A stretch of DNA of 49,300 nucleotides from NCBI RefSeq assembly GCF_024521635.1, contig NW_026250434.1:372001-421300 (forward strand), given 5' to 3'. The notes beneath the pieces are model-generated. The model made no database searches and had not been told where the DNA came from. It was given only the letters and a program-made list of their open reading frames with translations. How positions within the stretch are numbered: the stretch's first letter is position 1; each line of letters starts with the position of its first letter. A program made the position numbers and the translations under genes. The stretch is from Tricharina praecox. Taxonomy: Eukaryota. Shown in pieces: positions 16,418 to 44,097 of this stretch.

Positions 16418-17440
16418 CGATATCGCTATGCGACTATTACCAGTAACAGAGTCAGCGAGCTTTTCCGGACTTTATTAGGACATAGATTACCAGAATCACC
16501 TTGTAGGCTAGCCAAAACCAAAATATAATTCATGGTTTCAAACACCAGTCTCTTGTCTCTTTATTCGGTTGAATTTCTGTTTGGACCGTTTAACAAACCA
16601 CCCGTACGGGGATGGTGAAGTGTTTGAATCCCCGAGTTAAACAGCATTGCACGCAACTTATTAAAGCTGGAAGGCACACGACAGCCTGTGAGTAATCTCA
16701 CACTATCACTCGCGTTTTCCGAGAAGGAAGCTCCATGCGTTACCTACGATGTGTCCGACCAAGAGCTCAGGGAGCGTGAAGAGAGGGAGGCGGAGCTGAG
16801 GCGAGAGGGGAAGGATGGTGCAGAAGTCTATGAACCGGGATCACTCTCGTTGGTCTTCCCCACGTCCTCTTTCATGGCATCTCTTGTTGAAGAGACACAG
16901 AGGCGAGGCTGAGTCGGCCCGAGAGGGAGCGGAAGGTGTCTTTTCCTAGTTTCATTACTTCGGTGGGCTCTCAGTCTATTGCTGGCACAGGCTGGGCGGA
17001 GGGCAGGGGAAGACACAGAAAGTTGGGTTTTAGACAGTGGCGTGGAAATGGAGGGTGCATGGGCGGATATTGCGATGATCTACATAGGCCGTATGAAATC
17101 AATGCATGAACCAAAGACAGCCCGGTTGTAAGCGGTTCAGGTTTCAGCAGTCCCGGATACGTTCTTGACGCAGTGTCTCAACTTGGCTCGTCTTTTCTCC
17201 GTCAATAGTAGGCGTTTTTCAGGTGGCTCGATTCCGTCACCAACCACTTATTGTCGAATACCTTGCCGCCGTATGGACAGTAGGCGCGGTAATCCTCAGT
17301 GCTGTGGCGCTTTCGACCCTATGTTGTCAGGTGATGTACTAGCCGACGGGCGTGTTGAGGGTGAATGAAGCCTGAGCAAACGACCCTTCACTACCAAGTG
17401 GAATTGAAGTTGAGGCGACTCGCCGAGGGTCCGCAATCCG

Positions 17441-17575: not shown

Positions 17576-18242
17576 ATGGGTCGAATCAGCTGCTACTATG
17601 CGCTGATCGGTGTTGCACACGATGCAACAACCGAAGAAATAAAGGCAGCCATCGAGCTGGCCTTCGAGGAGGCGGACGACAACGGGATAAGCGTCAAGAC
17701 TGTAAGTTCACGCAATATTCATTAAGATATGATCACCCAGACTGACAGGTACAGCTGCGCACGGCCTCCAACGTGTTGACGAGTCTGCGGCGTCGAGAAA
17801 ACCACGACCGACGGCATGCTCATGGATGTAAGTTGCTTTCCCTTGCGCATACCTACTTCCCTCACTGATGATGTTAGGTACACTGTGCATCTATGCGCCC
17901 GTCAGGCGGAGGCCCGACGTTACGCTCATGAAGCCGTGGGTCGGAAGGCCCAGCGAGTCGCCAATCGTTCGCGAACGCCCCGCACCAAGCCTCTCCGAAG
18001 GTCCAGACGTCACCCAATGGGTCGACGTCTATGGGACTTGCCCACTTCGTGCTCTCTTAGTAGCACGGAGTAAAAGACGGCAGAGGAAACTCGGGAAAGG
18101 TCGTACCTTTCCTCAGCCGCTCTGGGAAGCTGCGGATACGAAGAAGTACGCGGCGAGGGAGAAGCTGGTGTTGGTGGCAGAGGGGGAGACCACGGTGGAT
18201 GCGATCGTCGGACGCATGGGGTGGACCATCGGAGGTGAGTGA
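17576..18242 (+). CDS. J-domain-like protein lacking HPD (3 exons: 17576-17701, 17755-17827, 17878-18242; ~187 aa)
   Basis: CYYALIGVAHDATTEEIKAA...LRTASNVLTSLRRRENHDR parallels DnaJ helices I/II and III/IV. GTAAGT donors with CTGAC/CTGAT branch sites keep the frame. Confidence 0.65.
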
Positions 18243-18428
18243 AGCGACATTCCATGGCCACTGGTTACGTGGTGAGGTTTTTTACCTATGGGTTTTCCTC
18301 TAAAAAAACATCGTCTTCCTGGCCGCTGCGCGAGGAGACGAGGTTTTTGCTTGCTGCTTTGCTGCTGCTATCCCAAACAATCGATGGATGTGCATTCCCA
18401 CCTATGTAGGGTGGACTGTCGGTACGTG

Positions 18429-18964
18429 CAGGGCTGTCAACCGTCCGTCCCGTCCGTCTTTGAGGTTGCCCGGCCCGGGACGGAATTAGTCGGGCTGAGG
18501 AGACCAAGGACTACAGTCTTCCGGGCTGCAGAAATGAGGACGGATACCCTACAGGGCCCAGAATCTACTGACACATTAGGACACTGCTGGCGGCGAGGCG
18601 CCACACAGTGGCGTCGGTGTGAGGATGTGTGACTGGGCAGCTCTATTTCGCAGTTTCTCTCACGGTATAGAACTTTCACACCATCCCCGTTCCTACTTCA
18701 AGCAGTGCCTATCAGCTGAGCATTTGACGAATCTGAAAATTCTGCTGAAGGTTGAAAATCCCGTTGGTAGCTACCGCGCTACTCCGCAAACTAGTAGTCA
18801 GCATAGCACTCTAATACTATCAGGTACCTATAGGTACCTAGCGGGTATCCGGGCATTTCATCCACCGGACGGAATGGATCAGTCCTCTGGAAAGCCTGCC
18901 CGGGAGGGGACGGGACTACAGTCCACTAGTGGACTGTAGTCAGGACGGACGGTTGACAGCCCTG
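18429..18964. mobile_element. hAT-type MITE, copy 2 (536 bp), nested in the TIR element
   Basis: 22-bp TIR CAGGGCTGTCAACCGTCCGTCC; perfect 8-bp TSD GGTACGTG (18421-18428 and 18965-18972). Confidence 0.95.
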
Positions 18965-19450
18965 GGTACGTGATGGCTGGGAGCCTGGGAAAGGGGGGGA
19001 TTATCCGAGAGGACCCAAATGACTCGCAATACGATGCGCAGGACAATAGTTTATTGTTCGATACCGTATTCATATCACGATTCATTTCCACTTCCTCTTG
19101 GTGTCACTTTGACGAAGTCAAGCAGACGGACGAAATGTGAATGATGAGAAAGATGCTGTATTCGCTAGCTACGGACGGAGAATATATACTCTGCTAGCGC
19201 GAGACAGCTATCTGTGTGTGTCAAATATAAGGTAGATAAAGATGATGATAGCACCTATTCGGTACAGCAACAATATGGTGAGCAGCGAGCTCTCTCTATA
19301 CAACCTTCACAACCAGGAAGTATCCACATCGATCTCTTCGGAGTTCTGTGCTCAGATACCCCACTGGAGTACGCTAAGGACATCGTTATCTCCGGACGTC
19401 CCATAATCTGACAGAGAGTGACAGAAAATCTCATATCCATATTCCGACAG

Positions 19451-19503
19451 AGAGACATCTTCCTGTTTTATGTCGCATGCAGCCTATCTAGACTATGGCG
19501 AAC
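19451..19503 (+). repeat. Dispersed ~55-bp repeat, second copy at 38526-38582
   Basis: agagacatcttcctgttttatgtcgcatgcagcctatctagac-tatggcgaac vs agagagatctccctgttttatttcgcatgcagactatctagactaggtatggcgaac. Confidence 0.8.
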
Positions 19504-20159
19504 TATATTCTGACAGTATGCAACACAAGCGACAGTGTCATAATCTCACGAACTTTCGTGTACCGCGTCAATTCCGCGGACAAGGTCATGAACGATCACT
19601 CGATATGCCGAGATACTTCGGTTATGCGTTCTCACGGAAGTGGCGAGCGGCAGCGTGCGGCCTCTATCCTAGGGACCCCCGCGCCTTCCAGTATATATGC
19701 CTTTCTTTCTGTCGTGTCTGATACACTGTGCACTATCTCACGATACCACGTTTCTTGAGAGAAAGACTGTGCCTGCGAGCGAGTGACAGCAAATGCAATC
19801 GTACGAGTGACAGCTCATTCACTTGCGTCGTACCCAAAGGGTGACAGCACTGAACCCGCTCGGGAGAAAGGTTGCACTGCGAACGGTATAATCGAGGGAT
19901 GCAGAGCTTTCTTTGTAATCTAGCCGGATCTATATTCAGATAATAATGGCTCTGACGAGTTGATTTTAGGGGTCCGATAGTGAATATAACGCAAATACTA
20001 GTTTCTTTATGCTCGGTATGAAAAGCGATAGCGCACGGATTCTTTTGGTATTGGTATACTATATACTTTTTTTCACGCCACCTTCCTCCATCTCTTCGGT
20101 CTCTCCGCTACTCCTTTCACTTCCTCGGTCTCGAGGACCTGCTTGGAGGAGTCGTCACC

Positions 20160-21756
20160 TCATTCGAGGTACGGCGCAACTTCCAAGTCTTCCACGGCGG
20201 TGATATACTCGATCACCTTCTTGCGAAGGTGACACGAGGTCTCAACCACCGGGGAACGAGGGTCTGACGCCAGCCTTGCACGGAGATGAGGAGCCAGCTG
20301 CGCGGGCGCAGCTGGTGGTCTGGGCTCGGCGCTCTTCGGAATCTTCTCGGAAGCCGACCGCTTCCCGGCAGTCTCCTTGTCGGCGATGGGGGACTCGGCT
20401 CTCCACCTCATCTCGAGGGAAGAGTTGGCCGTAGCCTGCACCTTCTACATCCTTTCGGCATACATAGCGGTGTTCGCCTCGACGAGATTACCCCATGCCG
20501 CGATGGCCAACTGCCGGGAGGGATCTGTTTCCGCGCTGGGTGGCTGCACTCTTCCGAACGGCCTGCTGCTCCGCTGCCTGGAAGGTACGGCGCCTCGACG
20601 AACGCTACCAGGATTACTGGGTTTCTTCGCGCCAGTTTCTCCGGTGGTAGTGTTCGGAAGGGTCATTCTCTGACCCTCTGCCTTCTTCTCCCCGGTTGAG
20701 CGGAGCTGTAGGTGCTCACACACCAACGACTGTGTGTGGCCGTCGGCCTTCAGAAATGCCTCCCACAACCTGCGGTCGTTAGCCTTGATCATATGTTTGG
20801 TGAAGTGGTAGAAAACTCACGAGTTCGCGTTGAGTTCTTGTTGCGCTTCACACTCTTCCCGCTCCAGCTTTGGCAGCATGGTTACGGCCTCTAGTGCTTT
20901 AGCCTTGACGCTGCTCGGCTTCCGAAGCCTCGCTCGTCGGGCGGCATGCGCCTCCCCTGACGTCCTACAATTTCTTTCAGTTATTGCATTTCCGTTCACG
21001 TAGAATGAATACTTACTGCTTCTTCCTTCCCGAGGAGCAGCTAGCCAAATTGGCTCCAGCTGCTCCCGGTTCAAGATCTGCGTCGCAGGTGTTCCTTCTG
21101 GCCCCTCTGCCCGCCTTCATAGCTCTCTCGCGCAAGCGGCGACTATCGTGTCAGCACATCCACACTAATAATGATTGAAGGTTTAGCACTTACATCTTTC
21201 GATTCGGCACGCTTGTGGGAACCGAGCCACCGGTCTCCGCCGTGAGCAACACTTCTGCACCCGTAGGTGCGCCGTACGCCGTAGTAGTGACGGCAGAAGC
21301 AGTCACAGCAGAGCCCCTTGCGGCTTCGGCCCCATCGTGCTCCGCGGCTGACTCTCTGGTCGTATTGCTCGATTTGATCAGCATTCATTCCCGAGCAGTC
21401 GGAGGTACCAGCAGTTAGTAGTTACTCACTTGATCTTCTTGACGACCTTATGCTGGTTCATCCCAACAGCGCTTCGCACCGAAGAAGTCTGCTCGCGCAG
21501 ACATTCTTCCACTGCCGTAGCAGTGGCCGCAGTCGTACCGGTCGCATTCAAAACGCTCTTCAGTCCACCAGGAGCTTCTAGCTCGGCGGCGATGCGAGCA
21601 AGTCTATATGCCTCACGGCGTCGGCGCTGCTGTGGGTTCGGCCGCCTGCGATGAACTTAGCAAAGTCCAGAACCCATGCTGGAAAAGAGCCACAGACTTT
21701 TGCTTGGGCTTCTTGGCGAGATTGTGGGAAGTGGGGGAAAGTTCCGACATTTCCAT
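20160..21756 (-). pseudogene. 6-exon orphan cargo gene in the TIR element, in-frame TAG at 20445-20447
   Basis: ATG at 21756. Five GT-AG introns, all phase 2, join one frame (MEMSELSPTSHNLAKKPKQK|RPNPQQRRRRE...). The frame continues past the TAG to TGA at 20160. Could alternatively be an intact gene ending at 20445. Confidence 0.65.
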
Positions 21757-23779
21757 ATCGGGGCAAGGGTTGTGTCGTCGGAAATCTGTTGCGGTGAAGG
21801 CTTTGTGTTGTCGAATTGTTGTTTCGGCCACAGGGTCGTGTCTTCGGATGGTTGTTCAGGAGAAGGGGGATCGGATGGTTTTGTAGGACAGTAGGAGACG
21901 TGGAGTCGTGATTGCTTCGTTGACGTTTGTGGGTGTGGACTAGCACATCATAGTTTGCGTCGCCACGTCTGCTAATCACCTGTCAGGACCTATCACAGGG
22001 TCATAGCAAGCAATTGACACTTGCCTTGTTCTTTAAACCAACCTAACGCGCTTCACTACAAACATCAACCGGCGGCTCCTAATATATGGTCACGCTGTCC
22101 CCCATCCCTAACGAGTATCGCCAGCAGCCCCATTCACATCCACATCGTTCGAACACGCACCTAGTGATGGTGTATGAACTTTGCTCGCTCGTTTCATCTG
22201 ATGAGCAAGTTTTGGTGGGTCTAGCAGGGCGTTCAACCCGTCTCCGACAGTTGGCGTCACGTTTGCTCGCTCGTTTCATCTAGGAAGCACCGGTGAACAT
22301 CACTAGTAGTGCGGTCAGCAGAAGACATCCCGTATATACCAATATTACCGGTGGTATAGCATCCGAGCATAATGTAGTATTTCGTGAGCGGGGCCAGTAT
22401 AGGTGGGAGAGGTTGGTGGACGCCGAACATGGATACGGCCGGGCGGCGCCGTGGCGGCGGGATGTCGGTTTCAACATTCATAATTTCGAATTCGACCGCT
22501 GGGTCGGATCATGATGGCTTTGAAATTTTGAATACACACTATATCCTAGTCTCCCCCTAGCCTTTGGTCTCGCTGGAGAGTCGGAGACGGCTGTCGGAGA
22601 TGGGTATGACGGAGAGGGATATGTTGGATGGACGGGTGGTGAGCGGGAGATGCACGTCACCTACGTGTTCAATCGTCGTTCGGTACTCTACGTACTACGT
22701 AGCAGGCTCGGGACCTACCTTCTGAAACACCCACGACCGGGTACGAGAAACTTTCCGGTGTGGGGTTGCGAGATCTGCACATCCACGGGCGGCCAGCGCC
22801 GGAGGCAAGGAGGGAAGGAGGTGGGGGCTGGGCGGACATAAGACCTCGCCCAGGTATTGAGCCTGACTGGATTGACAGCAATGTCATCCTCTCTCGCCTC
22901 GGTGTGTCTCTTTAGGTTGGCTGGTGTCGCAGCTTCAAACAGTACATGCCTGCGCGTGGGAGTGCTTCGTGTGGAGAGTAGCAAACGTGCTGGCCACCGC
23001 ACCACGTTTGTCGCTATTCCTCGTTGTAGAAATGTGTTCATTGGTGCCCACTCGTACCCTCGAGGCAGAGCGGAAAAGATCCAAGGACGGGGTTTTCTCT
23101 TGCGCTGCCGGCATAAGTTTCTTCCCCATTCCTCTGGGAGTCCAAGTCGGGTGAGAGCCGACTTGCTCCCGGTGGACGGCCTCTCCGAAACTGGGTGACA
23201 GACGGTTTCGTATTGACGAGCATCAAGAAAAAAACAATCTACTCCATTGGGCAGCCGACTGCGTATTAGTGAAGTGCTACGGTGGAGAGTTGAGGGAACC
23301 GGTCGGTCGAGGGAGAGAGCACGGAAGAGCTGAGAGAGCGAGGCAAGGCCCTGGGAGAGTCAGATGGCGGAAGAATCAGGGCACGGCATGGAAGAGTAGA
23401 GGGAGCGGATGGGGTGTAGATACTCTCATTGTTCAGATAGGCCACATGGAAGCAATGAATAACACAAAAATCACACTCATTTCTGGTTATGTTTTGCCCA
23501 ATAGCGTTCCAACGAACGTTCCAACAGCCAGTGGACGACGTTTCCAGGGAATATGGTGGCGTGGGTTCGTTCATACGCTTCCCACTCACTGGACGTGTCG
23601 ATCGTCGCAAGTTTTATACACGCAACCCATTACGTTCATAGAGAATTGTTTTTTCTGATGGATAACCGCATAGCAACACCAAGAACCTCGTCCCCTCGCG
23701 CAGCGGCCAGGAAGACGATGTTTTTTCAGAGGAAAACCCGTAGGTAAAAAACCTCACCACGTAACCAGTGGCCATAGAG

Positions 23780-23930
23780 CCCTCAGTGAAACCACGCAGT
23801 ATTCAACCTTGAGGTCTTCAAGATACGCAAGACATCACTCCATTGACGATACAATTTACCCAACACAGCGAATGCCGTGTCTTAAAGGAAGTCTCCGCAT
23901 CTGAATCCCCTCAGTGAAACCACGCGGTAT
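23780..23930 (+). repeat. Direct repeat CCCTCAGTGAAACCACGCRGTAT (near 23780 and 23908)
   Basis: ~23-bp near-identical pair; the core CAGTGAAACCACG recurs at 25071. Confidence 0.8.
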
Positions 23931-23963
23931 GCACTGATGGCTGTGGTGGCGGTGCCAAACGCC

Positions 23964-24813
23964 CTACCACAACCAGAAGCCGACCGCTACCACCATAGCA
24001 GCCACCACGACCGTCCGAACGACACTCCCATCCGGCTGCGAGGCCGCCATCCGCTCCGCGAGAATTCTCTGGTCGACCTCCTCCCGGTCAAACGGAGCAT
24101 CCCGTTGGACGTCGGTGGCCATGCCACCCGCAACCGTCCGCAAATGCTCAAGAGGCATGCCAACGCGAGGGCATGGCGCTACGCGCGCACGCGCCGCGAG
24201 GCAAGCATCGTCTCGCTTCCGCCGGAGCTTCTCCTGGAAAATCCGCCGGGCCTCCTGCTGGGCAATGACCTTCTCACGCTCAAGGCAGCACGCCTTCCGG
24301 CGACGCCGCACCGCCTCCTGCTGGGCCAGCAGCTGACGTTCCGACGCCAGACGCTCGTAATTCTGCCGGATGTGCTCCGCCACGAGGGCCTACGTGTCCT
24401 TGCGCTCCGGCAAGGAGGGGAGGGGCTTGACTTCGATCTGGGCTCCGGTGTGAAGTTCCGCCTTCGCCACCATCGCCGCCCTTCGAGAAATGCGCTTGAC
24501 TGCAGGAAGCGTCTCGCTACTGGTCGAAGTGGCAGGCTAGGGGGAGGGTCAAGGGTCTCGGTGTTGGTTGGAAACGGCAGCGTAGGGGGAGGCGGAAGGG
24601 GCTCGCTGATGGTCAAAGGCGACGGCGCAGTGGCACGAGGAAAGGTTATTCTGCTGGCCAAAAGTTGCAGCGTAGGGGGAGGAGGACAAGTTTCGATGGT
24701 AGTTGTAAACGGCGGTGTAGTGGCAGCAAAAAAGGGCGCGCGCTGGTTAGCCTTGGGCTGGACATTCTCGCGTTTACTTTCCGGTCGGTCTTCGATGTGT
24801 GTGGTGGTGCCAT
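23964..24813 (-). pseudogene. Decayed tail-anchored coiled-coil protein gene, paralog A
   Basis: N-terminus MAPPHTSKTDRK; C-terminus ...AERMAASQPDGSVVRTVVVAAMVVAVGFWLW*. Frameshifts plus a TAG at 24390-24392 where paralog B has CAG. Confidence 0.75.
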
Positions 24814-25054
24814 CGTAGGGATTGGTGTCGAAGGCAAAGTTGTCGAGAGGAGAAAGACGTCTGGGTGTTCTGTGTGGAGAGAGTGGGGCAACAGAAGATG
24901 TGGTGCAGTGAAGAGGGAAGGAAGAGGAGAGACGGGAAGAAAGAAAGCAGCGGGTAGGTTGGGGGCGCCAGAATCAGGGTAACATTTCGATGTGATTCGT
25001 GGGGTGAGATAGGTCTATAACATTAGGGTATTTGCTGTTTGACTTGTGTGAAAA

Positions 25055-25090
25055 CTAGCTGGAATCCGTGCAGTGAAACCACGTGCACGG
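25055..25090 (-). mobile_element. Helitron-like 3' terminus (hairpin + CTAG|T)
   Basis: Minus strand reads CCGTGCACGTGGTTTCACTGCACGG-ATTCCAG-CTAG|T; degenerate homolog at 43065-43092. Confidence 0.45.
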
Positions 25091-25241
25091 CGAGTCATCA
25101 CAACAACTCTTCAACCTTCCCCGAAGTCTTATCCGTCTATGCTTCCTCGGTCTCCGGTGCGTTTCGATAGGGACCGGAAGAAATTATAACATCCGAGTTA
25201 TACGCGTCTAACCTGGGGGGGTTGTATGGTCTACTACCGCC

Positions 25242-29154: not shown

Positions 29155-29558
29155 TTATGAGCTGGATGAGACTGCGCGCCAGTTAGATCCGAGAGGGACA
29201 CGCCGCTGCGATTGAAGTCGCATATGATAGTGGGTGTTCGGCAGATGTGGGGTTCATATCTCGAGGGAGGGTAACCCGGGTCGAGTTGGGGTCGAGAAGT
29301 TGGGGTACTACATGACGAACTCCTATAGATGGACTTTCCTCTTTAGACAGCACGTTTACATCTAACGACCACCACCGTCTCTCACATTGATAGCAACACT
29401 CTGTGTCTGTCCGGTTCTAAAAATCTACGTTCCGGGTGAGTGGGTGCACCTGAAACTCCGCGAGCACGACCTTTGAAAAGATCGCTGATAAACACCGAAG
29501 CTCGAACATGCCGACCGCTGGCCCTGCCGGAGATCCGCTGCTCTAAACGAGCGGGTCC

Positions 29559-31069
29559 ATGCTCGACGCCGCTACTAGGCTACACCCGCACTTCGGTCGG
29601 TTACCGGCTGGTTCGTCCAAGCTCCCGACGAGCACAACGGGCCAGGAAAAGGCGCCCGTCCTAGATTTCGGAACCCCGGCGCAGCCAAACTTGAACTTCA
29701 ACTTCCAGGATATTCCCAACGACCAGCGCACGACGGAATTCTACAAGTTTCAGTACGATACAGTCTGCATGAGGTTCAACATGCAGACCGACCCAACCAA
29801 GATTAGTGAAGAGGACTTGCGAATGAACGTCCTCTACAACGCTGCTCTCGCTGACATGGTACGCGACGGACTTTACCTTGTTGATCGCGAAACCGCCTTG
29901 CGCAGACATGCCGAAGATGAACTGAATAAGGCAAAGGAGGAAGGGGATGGCAAGACACAGGAAGTGACGAAGGTGAATGTCGAGCTCCTCGACCTATACT
30001 GCCAACTGCGGCAATCGAACCACGTTCTCACCAGATCGGACCCCCGAATCTTCCGTGTTAAAGACATCAGCTTGCCTAAATATGATGGTAATACAAGCGT
30101 CGCCGCCATCAACGATTTTTTGACCGCTATGGAGTGTAGCTTGCGCGAAGCTAGCACACAGTCTCTGGGGATTGAGGTACCGCTCGATACCACAGTGTGG
30201 TCCAGCGCCGCGATCATGCAGCTGCGCAACCCGATTCAGGCGGCGTACCCCGGTGCCCTCAGTGGGCCAACAATAAGTGGATCCCAGGCGATCACACCAC
30301 TCCCACCTGGGAGACATTTTAAACAGGATCTGCAGGATCGTTTCATCCCCTGGTCGGCGACGCAGCATGCAGTCCGTGCATTTGACGATCTAGCAATCGG
30401 TAAAGCAGCGAGAATGGACTCTTTCAACCAAGAATTTCTTCGCTTGGTATCCAATGTCAAGCTGGCGACTGGCAAGGATCCTGCAAATATGCTCGGAGCT
30501 TACATCAAGAAACTTGACCGTGCGGCTTCAAAGCAGCAACTGGCTATCAACTGCGACATGTGGTTGTTTGACATTGAGCAACGGGGTGATCAACCTCCCG
30601 ATCTAGCAACCACGATGAACTGGGTAGAGCGCCTGGATGAGAGAATCTACCATCGTTCTTCCCGTGATTTTTTCGCAGCGGCTCAGGTCCTGGCCCCTAT
30701 ACCACAAGTAGCTCGCCATCTGCGGGCCCCGATGCTATGGATTGGCAGGCGTACCTGACTCGGTTGGCCAACGAATCAATGGAAGCGAACTTCACGAAGA
30801 TGGGATTCAACAGAACGTCTGATAAGAAGAAGCCTGGAAACTCGACCGCCGGTCCCAACCTCAGTTCAACTGCGCAACAGGCGTATGACGCGACCCAGGA
30901 ATGCTGGGGCTGCAAAAAGGTGGGCCATATTCGAAACAACTGCCCTCAGAAGTCTATCTACAGGAGTAAACTTCTCGACCCCAACTCAACCCGGGTTACC
31001 CTCCCTCGAGATATAAACCCCACAGCAGAACAGACTGCCGTTTCGCGGCGGTCGGAGGTTTGGAGTTAG
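29559..31069 (+). mobile_element. Ty3/Gypsy-like gag (capsid + CCHC knuckle) without pol
   Basis: Motifs LPKYDG and FKQDLQDRF; GPDAMDW and CWGCKKVGHIRNNCP lie in the -1 frame (30737-31069). No protease/RT motifs downstream and no paired LTR seen. Confidence 0.75.
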
Positions 31070-38116: not shown

Positions 38117-38525
38117 GTTGTTTGTCTTGATGAATTGTCTGTGTGGAGTTGTGAGGCGTGGAGATGGATGAACTAGGAGCTGTTGTTGCGAAGGTGGTAG
38201 AGATAATGTGTTGTGGTGAGGAACGAAGAAGGAAAGAAGGAAGAAGGAGAGGGGATGAAGTTGGCTCGACCCCACAGAGGTCGTCGCACTTGCCGTTGGT
38301 GATGAAAAACGGAGGTGAATGAAGGGTAGAAACCGCGATTCACGAATTCCGCAAACACTAGCCTCACCAAAAAAGTAGCTAGTTCACGACGGCAACGCAC
38401 ATTTTCACATGACACACCAATCCGGATTCGCATCCACCGAATGTTTCAAGGTTCATGAATGTCTACAGGTATCTGAACCAGCCAAATCAATCTTGATTCT
38501 GATCGGAAGAGCCATCATGAGAGAG

Positions 38526-38582
38526 AGAGAGATCTCCCTGTTTTATTTCGCATGCAGACTATCTAGACTAGGTATGGCGAAC
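38526..38582 (+). repeat. Dispersed ~55-bp repeat, partner of 19451-19503
   Basis: 4 mismatches plus a 4-bp indel relative to the copy inside the TIR element. Confidence 0.8.
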
Positions 38583-39606: not shown

Positions 39607-41404
39607 GTCCACTCAGATGAGGCGCTGTGGCAAAAGGTTATGAGCCAGGTCGAAATCATCTGAATTTCTTCGAAAACAAGAATCCAGAGCACCCAACGAT
39701 AGTTATTCGAAAACAAGAGTCGGCGGTGCCCTCGGCGGTTGCCCGCAGCGAGAACCCCTCGCATACCTCCATACACTGCGGCAGGGAGTCGGTAGTCACC
39801 CCTGGGCGAAAAACTTCAAAATCGGCCGCCGGCCAACAATGCCAGCGAAAGTCAAATCTCTTCAGAGCTTGAACTAAAACGAGTGGACTGTGCGCCTTCG
39901 AGGTTCCAGCATGCTTGCTAGAGCATGGCCAGTGGGGAATCACCTGTGCTGACGCCAGCCAGCCTCCCTGGAAACTTTGGTACCTCTCAACGGCACAATT
40001 GAAGACTTTCTCAGACGATCATGCCAGGAAGGATCTTGAGATGGTATACCCGGAACATGCATAGCTTGGCAGGCCAGCTTGCGGATGGACCAGCCTGCGT
40101 TTAGACGGGACGATCTGAAGTCTGGGCTAGAACATATTAAGTACGTTTCAAAACATCACTACCAAATGAATATACGATAGACGTACAACTTCCACATTAC
40201 TCCACATCTCATTATCAAGCTGAAGATACTACTTAGTCAACGTTGTCCTGCGCAAAGCGCTGAGCTCTTCCCCGGGGTTCATTCTCCTCCCCGCCGTCGC
40301 CATATCGGCTGCAGAACAGGCTCTCTTAGAGTGATGAAATCGATGATGCTGTGCGGGGAAGCGGTGGTGAGACTTCTTCTGAGGTTCGCACGTAGCAGCC
40401 GTGGTGGTGCAGTTCTCCGGCCAGGGACCGACGCTCGAATGATCTCGATCGTGTCATGCGCATCCTCGTCGCATTCGTCGGTCGGGGCACTCAATCCGCG
40501 GTCGGAAAGAGTGGACACACCCACCACATGAATACTGAAGCCACAGTGAGCGGGGTATTTGGTGTGCCAACGCCTGGTCTTGGCATTTGTGGAAGGTTGG
40601 AGTGCTTGTCGGAGGTGTGTGTTGTTCCTGGTTCAGTTGTCACGGGGCCGAATACATTTTCTCACGCGGACGTCAAATCACTGGGTCTACGAGACGGGTG
40701 AGCCCGTCCTTGAAAGGACTGTATTTGTCGGCTGGGCGAACTGTGGGTAGACCATTTGGATGACGCGGCTGGCCCAGGCACAGATTTTCTGCACAGTGGG
40801 CGAGCCCAGTCATAGATCTACTGGTGAACCGGCCTACTGCCAGATTAATTCTTTACAATACGATTATGTTCCCATTTTCAGGATTTCCAGGATAGCGGCT
40901 GGTTTCGCCAAGGTTGTAAATGTTAAATTTTCCCTGCACTTCTAAATTGCAATCGTCGACGAACACATTATGAACGCACACATCATCTTCGCCAAAATTT
41001 TCACCGTTATCCAGCCCAATGATGAATTACATTCCACACGGCCAGTTCACAACTTCACACTCCCGGCTGAGTAGGTAAGCCTAGTCAACCAACACAGTCC
41101 ACCAACAGTCCACCAGTTTGCCAGTCCATTCCATCATAGACCGGTTCACCGCCCCACAGATGGGTCGACCCATATAGGCAGAGTGATCTGGCGTCAGGGC
41201 TACATTAGGAAATAGCACAACTGTGATCTGTGATTGAAGGTCAAAACTTATCGCCACCTGCCCCCTAAGGGTACACTACTACACCGCACATGTAAACCTC
41301 CCGAATTCAACAACCACTCAATTTATCAAACTACAAAAAAAGGGGGGGTGCCTGGACTCGGCTCACCACCGCCTCCCCTCCTGCCCTGCCTTGCCCCCAT
41401 CCCC

Positions 41405-42806
41405 CTACCACAACCAGACGCCAACCGCTACCACCAGGGCAGCCACCACAACAGTCCGCACCACGCTACCCTCATCCGGCTGCAAGGCCGCCATCCGCTC
41501 CGCTACGATCCTCCGGTTGACCTCCTCCCGGTCAATCGGAGCGTCATAGTGGGCAGCGGTGGCATTGCTGCCGGTATCCATCTGAAGATGCTCAGGGAGC
41601 ATGGCGGCGAGACGGGCGGCGGCGGCCTGGTAAGCGCGCTCTGCGAGGTGCGCAACCTTAGGCTCGAGCCGGAGTGGAGTGCCTCCCGACGACTCCGCTC
41701 CGCCTCCCGCTCCGCCAACGCCTGACGTGCGTGCTTCTGCCGGAGGTGCTCCGCGACGAGAGCCTGGGTGTGCTCCTCGTGCTTCCTCGCACTCTCCTGC
41801 TCAGCCAACGCCAGGCACGCGTACTTCTGGCGGATGTGCTCCGCCACTAGAACCTTTGTGTGCTCATCGTCCTCCCTCACTTCGCCATCCGCAATCTCTT
41901 CGTCTCGGCGCGCCACGCCGCCTCCCTGACCCTCTCCTTCGCCAACCGCCTCCTCTTCTCTTCCTTAAGGTCATGCCCGTGACCGCTTTTCTTGGAGGAA
42001 TTGTTCCCCTTGGAGTTGCCGGACAACTGCGCGGGGTAAGCTGCAGATGGATTCGAGCGTGTGTGGTTCGACGAATTCTGGCTTGTGGAGCTGCTTGACG
42101 GCTGCGCGGCCGGAGCGGAAGAGCGATTTACGTTTATATTGGTCGACGCTTTCTTGCTTGTAAAGCTGGCGGACGGCTTCACGGACGGAGCGGGATTCGT
42201 GAGTATATGCTTCGAGGAATTGCTCCTCTTACAGTAGCTTGATAACTGAGCCACCCAATCGGCAGAGCGATTCGCGGCGGTATTGGACGACGCATTCTTG
42301 GTTGTAAAGCCACCTCATAGCTGCACTACCGGACAGGATGAGGGATTCACGACTGTATTGATGGGCTCATTCTTCCTTATAAAGCCACCGGACAACTGCA
42401 CTGCGGGAGCGGTAGAGGAATTGGGGACGGTCTTGATGGACTCATCCTTAGTTGTAAAGCTACCGGACATCTGCAGTGCGGGAGCGGAGGAGGGAGTCGT
42501 GACGGTATTGATGGAAGCATTCTCGGTCGTGAAGCTACCGGATTCTGCAGTGCCGGAGCGGATGAGGGATTCGTGACTGTCTTGGTCGACGAATTGCTGA
42601 TCTTGGAGGCGCCAGACAACTTAGCGACCCAATCGGAAGAAGGATTTGGACAGCTACCGGAGAACCGAGAGGCCGGAGCGGGAGTAGCATTCGTGGCTTT
42701 CGTGGATGTCAGCGTGCTCTATGTTTGGTTGAAAAGGCTACTACATACCTGGGTTCGTCCTAGGCTTCGCCTTTCTCGCGGTCTTCTGGGTGTGTGGAGG
42801 TGTCAT
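41405..42806 (-). pseudogene. Decayed tail-anchored protein gene, paralog B, with 25-aa tandem repeats
   Basis: Exon 1 MTPPHTQKTARK (42806-42749) and intron 42748-42697. Frameshifts and an in-frame TGA within the repeats. C-terminus ...GSVVRTVVVAALVVAVGVWLW*. Confidence 0.75.
42010..42700 (-). repeat. ~75-bp coding tandem repeat (about 8-9 degenerate units)
   Basis: Anchors gtaaagc/ataaagc/gtaaagc/gtgaagc near 42304, 42379, 42454 and 42529; unit ~SGSFTTKNASINTVTNPSSAPALQL. Confidence 0.85.
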
Positions 42807-44097
42807 CTTTACAAACTCGGCAAAGGTTATTTGGAAGAGAGACAGAAGAGTGTGTGTGATTTGCTGTGGTGACGGCACAGGGAAGATGAGCGAAGGAATT
42901 CGAAGGGTGGTGTGGAGTGGTGAAGAAACAAGGAAGAGAAGAGAAGGAAGAAGGAAAGCAGCGGTTTTGTGGTAGACCATTTGTGGCTTTGGTCAGTGGG
43001 GTGAGACCGGAGCAAACCGTACGGCTATACCCTAGGGTTATTTGCTGTTTGGCCTGCACTAAAACTAGTGTCCGTGCAACGAAACCACCCGTAGATCTAG
43101 TCACCAAACAGGTGAACGCATAGACCTGTCACCTGCGAGGTGTCGGGATAATACAGTAGATTTCAAATTTTCAGTCATCGCCTAACCTCCACATCGGTAC
43201 TAGTATCGACACGACGGGCGAATCTATCCCCCATCCCCCTCACGCCTGAGTTCATCCGATGTGTATGTCTATTGCGCGCTGCTCATGTTCCCGCAGCACA
43301 GCTTCCACCTGTTGAATTTCCATTCGACTTCCATGGACTGGAACTTGAACCCCGCACGCCGGGACAAAGACTTGAGACACTCAATGGCCTGGATGATGAA
43401 TCATGATTTCGTCCCTCAGAATCACTTGCTGATCACTATTATTTTGTACCAATGCAACGTCCACCGTGGTCCGTACAGTTACGATACGAGATGGAACATA
43501 TCCGCCAGCTGTGAGCCTTTGCTTTGCGTGAGGCGGGCGAAACTTCAAAGTTCAATACTGGCTGTACACCATATCGGTGTCATGGCGGCGCCAGCCGGTA
43601 ACTACAAGCCGGTAGTAGGTACACACTGGTGCCTACCGAATGTTGAACCATGATAATTGAATTCCAGCACCGCTGTATTGTGAGCTGCACTGTAACTGTT
43701 GCTCCGGTGCTGTTTGCTCACGGAGTCACGGTACCGACGTCTAGTCACGTGCACTGTACTAGCCGGCTTGTACGGTCACGCTCATCAAAATACCGCACGT
43801 GACCTGCGAGGTCGGGTACTGTACGTTCCTTTGCACCTGATGGCAGCGCCGAAACACTCTAAGTAATGTAAAGCGACAGTATGCACTTCGGTATGGGTAA
43901 TTCATTTCAGCCAGCAAAACGAGTCCACCCAACCACCCAACCACCCGAAACATCTTCCAAGTCCCAACAAACACATGGCAATCATCCACCCCCCCCCTTC
44001 CCTGCCAGATCACTTGCTCCCCCAACCACCGACACCTCGCGCAAAAATCATAGATATCGCTCTCCAGCCCTCCCACTCCCATCGTCTGTCTGTCCGT

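Follow-up and report, generated by a model that had tools for sequence, protein, structure and literature searches.

A gene-carrying element with long terminal inverted repeats and no transposase, probably a non-autonomous DNA transposon, in the fungus Tricharina praecox

Capture of genes by transposons is already documented in fungi, for example in the account by Dhillon et al. (2019, PMC6710886), in which histone H3 was captured and amplified by hAT elements in Dothideomycetes. In plants, coding DNA is carried by the Pack-TYPE elements, which comprise Pack-MULE, Pack-CACTA and others (Gisby and Catoni 2022, PMC8903248). Two further descriptions deal with the ends of DNA transposons. As described by Kojima (2025, PMC12730594), the CMC/CMCT clade unites EnSpm/CACTA, Mirage, Chapaev and Plavaka and has CA..TG termini and duplications of 2-5 bp; EnSpm has CAC..GTG termini and a 3-bp duplication, and EnSpm and Plavaka are among the carriers of a TET gene of the PE type, which occurs in Pezizomycetes and Agaricomycetes. 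In the survey by Han et al. (2015, PMC4482050), Pangu has 3-bp ANT duplications and PIF/Harbinger has TWA; ISL2EU, seen there in 14 animal species only, has an AT duplication in an A-AT-T target and terminal inverted repeats (TIRs) of 6-259 bp that begin with GG. Here we describe an element of about 5.5 kb in the Pezizomycete Tricharina praecox. It lies in a 49.3-kb stretch of contig NW_026250434.1 (positions 372,001 to 421,300), the whole of which we analysed and call the window; coordinates below count from its first base. The element is bounded by long TIRs and contains a spliced gene, and we interpret it, with moderate confidence, as a non-autonomous DNA transposon of class II, the cut-and-paste type, or as what remains of such a transposon.

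The evidence for this interpretation begins with the ends. An inverted-repeat search found two arms of 99 nt each (18251-18349 and 23680-23778) that are 95% complementary and are spaced by 5330 nt. When the arms were aligned, they proved identical from ATGGCC inward save for four mismatches in the 94 nt starting at GGCC, and all four mismatches are transitions. A looser similarity continues inward for about 20 nt past the 94 nt. The outer ends of the arms are sharp, and the flanks beyond them are unrelated to each other. The terminal 22-mer is present in the window at the two ends only, and two matches were seen in none of 100 shuffles.

No transposase was found between these ends: none of the 91 stop-to-stop frames of at least 40 amino acids in 18300-23730 matched a transposase family at E<=0.01. 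The sole match of any kind among these frames was to Prolamin_like (E 0.0082), under the cut-off of that family, and weak Pfam matches to R3H-assoc, PRP4 and DnaJ (E 0.02-0.04, all under cut-off) were discarded. The open reading frame (ORF) at 22718-23359 on the minus strand, in the right inner part, had no relatives among 359 candidates, all of near lengths only. Scans of the window with Rfam and for tRNAs gave no matches. Elsewhere in the window no transposase was seen among the 58 ORFs scanned out of 77 of at least 130 amino acids, eight of which had matches. The first-pass annotation of this DNA had reported TIRs of about 95 bp around 5.5 kb, the lack of a recognisable transposase, a spliced gene of six exons and a nested hAT miniature inverted-repeat transposable element (MITE); the bounds 18251-23778 and the 91 inner frames bear out the first two of these claims, and the other two hold as well, as set out below.

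The gene carried by the element lies on the minus strand. Five introns with canonical GT..AG borders (21697-21646, 21429-21356, 21193-21143, 21016-20965 and 20820-20770), 51-74 nt in length and with donors of the GTRAGT- or GTCTGT-type and YAG acceptors, divide a six-exon frame of 343 amino acids that opens with an ATG at 21756 and closes with a TAG at 20445-20447. Past the TAG, the frame stays open for 94 more codons. The public model of this gene, BZA05DRAFT_448680 (protein P0002), has seven exons and 383 amino acids, and it was rebuilt letter for letter from the window once a sixth "intron", 20603-20445, was spliced out. This "intron" is 159 nt long and in frame, has a GTTCGT donor and uses as its acceptor AG the TAG itself; the same stretch is coding in two relatives, P0001 and P0003. 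The simplest reading would be that the TAG is a C-to-T nonsense mutation around which the gene caller spliced, and the public model looks like an annotation work-around that masks this codon. Because of the nonsense codon, the copy of the gene in the element is probably decaying.

The family to which the gene belongs is small. P0001 (BZA05DRAFT_442813, 584 amino acids) is a paralogue on another, 1.54-Mb contig, and a phmmer search with it against 1.84 billion representatives returned three matches only, namely P0002, P0003 (168 amino acids, from a Logan contig) and P0004 (149 amino acids, from a JGI metagenome contig). The T. praecox genome has only two annotated members. No Pfam domain was found in the family. 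The Atlas model of P0001 has a predicted local distance difference test score (pLDDT) of 0.39 and a predicted template modelling score (pTM) of 0.20, and for this reason the proteins of the family are predicted to be disordered; an Atlas structure search with P0001 gave template modelling scores below 0.3 throughout, with nothing similar. Agreement with the last coding exon of the window copy is 78% for P0001; that of P0003 with the window is 75%. The alignment of P0001 to the window spans amino acids 1-447 and leaves its final 137 residues without a counterpart. Because the terminus of P0003 coincides with the end of the window copy, the extra residues may be a property of P0001 or of its gene model. 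Taken together, these data describe a fungus-specific, lineage-restricted orphan family, disordered by prediction, with few and diverged members.

P0001 is a paralogue elsewhere in the genome. Capture from the host is not implied by it, because a lineage-restricted orphan family could itself travel with such elements, and the data on the gene agree equally well with either origin. We therefore considered the explanation that the cargo is not captured host DNA, and that it would instead be an accessory or hitch-hiking orphan gene of a mobile family, with its paralogues in sister elements. The tiny, lineage-restricted family, with its three phmmer matches, suits such a gene, as do the lack of a Pfam domain, the disordered model and the mutual divergence of the members; the neighbouring gene, P0005, likewise has a diverged paralogue (81% identical). 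Against this, the genome annotates two members only, and the gene-bearing middle of the element lacks raised depth in metagenome contigs (see below). We regard a hitch-hiking gene as a tentative and rather doubtful explanation of the cargo.

Other repeats have inserted into the element. An 8-bp perfect direct repeat, GGTACGTG, flanks the nested MITE at 18421-18428 and 18965-18972. Since duplications of hAT elements are usually 8 bp (PMC12730594), "hAT-like MITE" would be a fair name for it, as judged from the sequence. A second copy lies at about 1627-2427 of the window; it is longer (801 bp, with about 300 extra bases), lies in the opposite orientation and has an identity of 82-96% when taken piece by piece. 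The 8-mers on its two sides agree at only five of eight positions. We also used short Logan contigs of soil-metagenome runs and of one small run (X5). Contigs of two metagenome runs stop exactly at the ends of the MITE, at 18429 (eight contigs of run X1) and at 18964 (run X3). A second embedded piece, at 19446-19503, is about 58 nt long and 85% alike to its copy at 38521-38582. The bin that holds it, 19403-19669, has a summed X1 depth of 932, the maximum of the stretch. Many X1 contigs break at 19449/19467 and at 19502/19503, and most copies diverge past 19503; this piece is probably the terminal part of a very abundant repeat family. The element appears to be old, because it has acquired the hAT-like MITE and the fragment of another repeat, and because four transitions separate its ends.

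The interval 23056-23220 inside the element also showed a local rise, with a summed depth of 257.7 at 23177 (16 X1 contigs, all with T for C). Contigs break at 23056, 23113 and 23220, and no second copy was found in the window. This interval may be another embedded repeat.

The precise ends can be read in more than one way. The junctions form the palindrome ATGGCCAT, and three registers therefore give a direct repeat and fit equally well: AT with GGCC ends (18256/23773), GC with CACTG ends (18259/23770) and GGCC with ACTGG ends (18260/23769). The empty site predicted by the AT reading is ttccATagag, and that predicted by the GC and GGCC readings alike is ttccatGGCCatagag. The two readings of the ends that had been proposed earlier were both correct as read, but the third, with ACTGG ends and a 4-bp GGCC, had been missed.

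Several superfamilies were excluded by these registers. No register yields a 3-bp direct repeat (CAT/ATA, ATG/CAT and GGC/GCC), and Pangu, with its 3-bp ANT duplication, canonical PIF/Harbinger, with its 3-bp TWA duplication, and the 3-bp pattern of EnSpm (GGC vs GCC here) were excluded for that reason. Tc1/mariner and pogo were rejected, TA being absent at every register. A 9-bp duplication of the MULE type was not seen; the sequence AGTGAA is shared 12-13 nt out on each side, and the inverted repeat stops short of it. In the AT reading, the rebuilt target is C-AT-A rather than the A-AT-T of ISL2EU. The label "ISL2EU/Pangu-type" in the first-pass annotation was thus a loose one: an AT duplication and a GG-initial TIR can be read in this one of the three registers, but the ANT duplication of Pangu and the A-AT-T target are absent.

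Each of the two main registers has its cost. The AT reading requires that CACTG, three bases inward, be a coincidence, and the GC reading requires three extra palindromic flank positions, by coincidence or by target preference. In a rough division, we place the element tentatively near CMC (CACTG ends, 2-bp GC), consider a relative of PHIS/ISL2EU (GGCC ends, AT) an unlikelier assignment, and leave the rest to the 4-bp GGCC reading and others.

Metagenome contigs gave a hint of further copies. The two X1 bins that hold the ends of the element have summed contig depths of 83.7 and 81.7, against 28.8 and 21.2 in the adjoining bins on the outside and 28.5 in the one next to the right end on the inside. 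The depth over both ends is thus 3-4-fold that of the flanks, but such sums pool different organisms and do not measure copy number. In addition, 22 X1 contigs can be placed at two sites in the stretch. Two contigs depart from the window sequence where the left TIR ends on its inner side (18347 and 18348) and match it again from 19110 and 19263. The rise in depth and the split contigs hint at a family whose members share only the ends of about 100 nt and differ in their insides.

The same depth profile, raised over the ends of about 100 nt only and not over the gene-bearing middle, would also suit a composite that never moved as a unit, in which two members of a short-TIR family inserted in opposite orientation around resident gene DNA and lost their inner ends. 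The capture route proposed for plant Pack-TYPE elements starts in this way (PMC8903248), and a target-specific family would give the same 2-bp flanks each time, so that the flanks cannot show that both ends arrived together. No inner terminus was found, however. The terminal 14-mer, searched with up to three mismatches, matched five places, against 3.74 expected by chance. Two of these, the outer ends of the element, match exactly, and each of the remaining three has three mismatches. Furthermore, the two arms cease to resemble each other after about equal lengths, and a composite would have needed a matching truncation to produce this. We consider a composite unlikely.

Several observations weigh against a transposon that moved as a unit, and they should be set beside the TIRs. 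The gene-bearing middle (19937-22873) has a depth of 6-20, no higher than that of the flanks, so that there is no sign of further copies of the gene-carrying form. A 223-nt contig of run X5 spans 18109-18328 without a gap at 90% identity and so includes the flank together with 73 nt of the TIR. Further contigs of X5 are 100% identical to sequence close by. The left junction is accordingly shared with a relative or with a paralogous locus, which points to an old insertion and not to recent movement. The terminal 19-mer occurred at five loci in JGI metagenome contigs, none of which shares more than 21-30 nt with the element; four (L001-L004) represent one unrelated sequence and the fifth (L005) shares 21 nt, and all were judged to be chance matches. 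In viral contigs the 19-mer had no loci. A contig joint that skips the element was not seen among the 15 joints listed of 49, a result that is not evidence against an empty site. Finally, because the candidate duplications are all 2-4 bp long and palindromic, they are by themselves no evidence of insertion.

The window also holds no paralogous empty site: the paralogy between 23955-25105 and 41396-43110 ends 180 nt short of the insertion point, and a 26-nt repeat at 23780 and 23908 has no extension across that point.

We asked whether the inverted repeat could be no transposon at all, and instead a by-product of local inverted duplication or rearrangement. The sequences searched contain no second copy, empty site or transposase, as this explanation would have it. 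On the other hand, depth is raised over the two arms only, the arms end sharply on their outer sides against unrelated flanks, and other mobile repeats have inserted in the region. We judge such an origin very improbable.

The non-autonomous transposon, or its relic, remains the explanation that we favor. The TIRs of about 94 nt would be the sites bound and cut by a transposase encoded elsewhere, the element would have inserted between genes, 13 nt downstream of the stop of the small gene for P0005, and its cargo would be one member of the small, fungus-specific family of putatively disordered proteins. The gene-carrying non-autonomous transposon proposed in the first-pass annotation is supported by the transposase-less anatomy, the long TIRs, the MITE and the spliced gene, but movement as a unit and "Pack-type capture" are unproven. 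A bolder version, in which the element would be a fungal ISL2EU-like member of PHIS that acts as a Pack-type carrier and copies whole intron-bearing orphan genes, with the paralogues of the cargo and of the neighbouring gene as products of this traffic, seems to us distinctly improbable.

Table 1. Coordinates of the element, its parts and the adjoining gene in the 49.3-kb window
Feature	Position	Strand	Remarks
Whole element, AT reading	18256..23773	.	5518 bp; basis: end alignment, inverted-repeat search
Whole element, alternative extents	18259-23770; 18260-23769		CACTG ends with GC duplication; ACTGG ends with GGCC duplication
AT, candidate target-site duplication	18254..18255		partner 23774-23775; too short for significance alone
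Left TIR	18256..18349	+	inverted-repeat search, arm alignment, 22-mer count
Right TIR	23680..23773	-	inverted-repeat search, arm alignment, 22-mer count
Nested MITE	18429..18964	.	536 bp; 22-nt perfect TIRs; hAT-like by duplication length
Fragment of unrelated short high-copy repeat	19446..19503	.	second copy 38521-38582
Cargo gene	20160..21756	-	identical to T. praecox BZA05DRAFT_448680 (P0002)
In-frame TAG	20445..20447	-	Gln in relatives P0001 and P0003; acceptor of the public 159-nt "intron"
Neighbour gene BZA05DRAFT_422086 (P0005)	17576..18242	+	189 amino acids; 3 exons; TGA 18240-18242

The plus-strand ORF to the left of the element is 100% identical to P0005, whose exons lie within 17576-18239, and 13 nt separate its TGA from the GGCC end of the element. 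P0006, a paralogue of P0005 on another contig, is the 81% identical protein mentioned above, and both end in ...GWTIG-x-E. Because the two proteins share this ending, the element lies just beyond an intact coding end and not within a gene. Insertion into an intron was rejected, as the GTGAG before the element holds the true TGA of P0005 and P0006 ends likewise. The homology of P0005 and P0006 also extends to DNA upstream of the gene (17365-17430).

On the right, a minus-strand gene starts about 190 nt beyond the end of the element. The right-flank gene at 23955-25105 has a diverged copy at 41396-43110, 17.4 kb away, with a nucleotide identity of 65-67%; young duplicates specific to the lineage are numerous in this region. 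The other genes of the window encode AMP-binding, RING, WLM, 2OG-Fe(II) oxygenase and amidohydrolase proteins. Outside the element, a 56-nt inverted repeat (29246-29301 and 30969-31024, 96% complementary arms 1667 nt apart) would be a further candidate for a TIR-bounded element.

For the present, the structure described here counts as an unclassified non-autonomous element of an ordinary kind. Should the family be confirmed by other copies, the structure would represent a transposase-less TIR element with a near-complete spliced gene in a Pezizomycete, and such a family would be a possible source of lineage-specific orphan paralogues. In practical terms, the public model BZA05DRAFT_448680 appears to hide a nonsense codon in a 159-nt "intron", and the "gene" is probably a decaying cargo copy.

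How, then, does the element compare with the systems described? It resembles the ISL2EU elements in PMC4482050 when read from 18256/23773, in that it has an AT duplication, a start with GG and a TIR of 94 nt, which falls in the range of 6-259 bp. It differs from them in its C-AT-A target and its fungal host, and this copy has neither a DDE/THAP transposase nor a YqaJ ORF. With the CMC/CMCT clade as outlined in PMC12730594 it shares, in one register, the ends CACTG..CAGTG at 18259/23770 and a 2-bp GC that is within the range of the clade. Its ends do not match those given there for PlavakaA (TGT..ACA) or PlavakaB (CATCA..TGATG), and it lacks the 3-bp duplication of EnSpm (GGC vs GCC) and a transposase.

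Among carriers of genes, the hAT elements with histone H3 are autonomous, have hundreds of copies and show repeat-induced point mutation in the account of PMC6710886, whereas the element described here is read in one copy. Both are nevertheless fungal DNA transposons, in our case a probable one, that hold an inactivated copy of a gene which exists elsewhere, the inactivation here being read from the nonsense codon. From the Pack-TYPE elements as reviewed in PMC8903248 the element differs in its fungal host and in its cargo, which is an almost complete gene with its introns and about 1.9 kb of upstream DNA rather than a shuffled fragment. The likeness is one of anatomy: like Pack-TYPE elements, the T. 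praecox element is transposase-less, is bounded by TIRs and encloses coding DNA that has a paralogue elsewhere in the genome.

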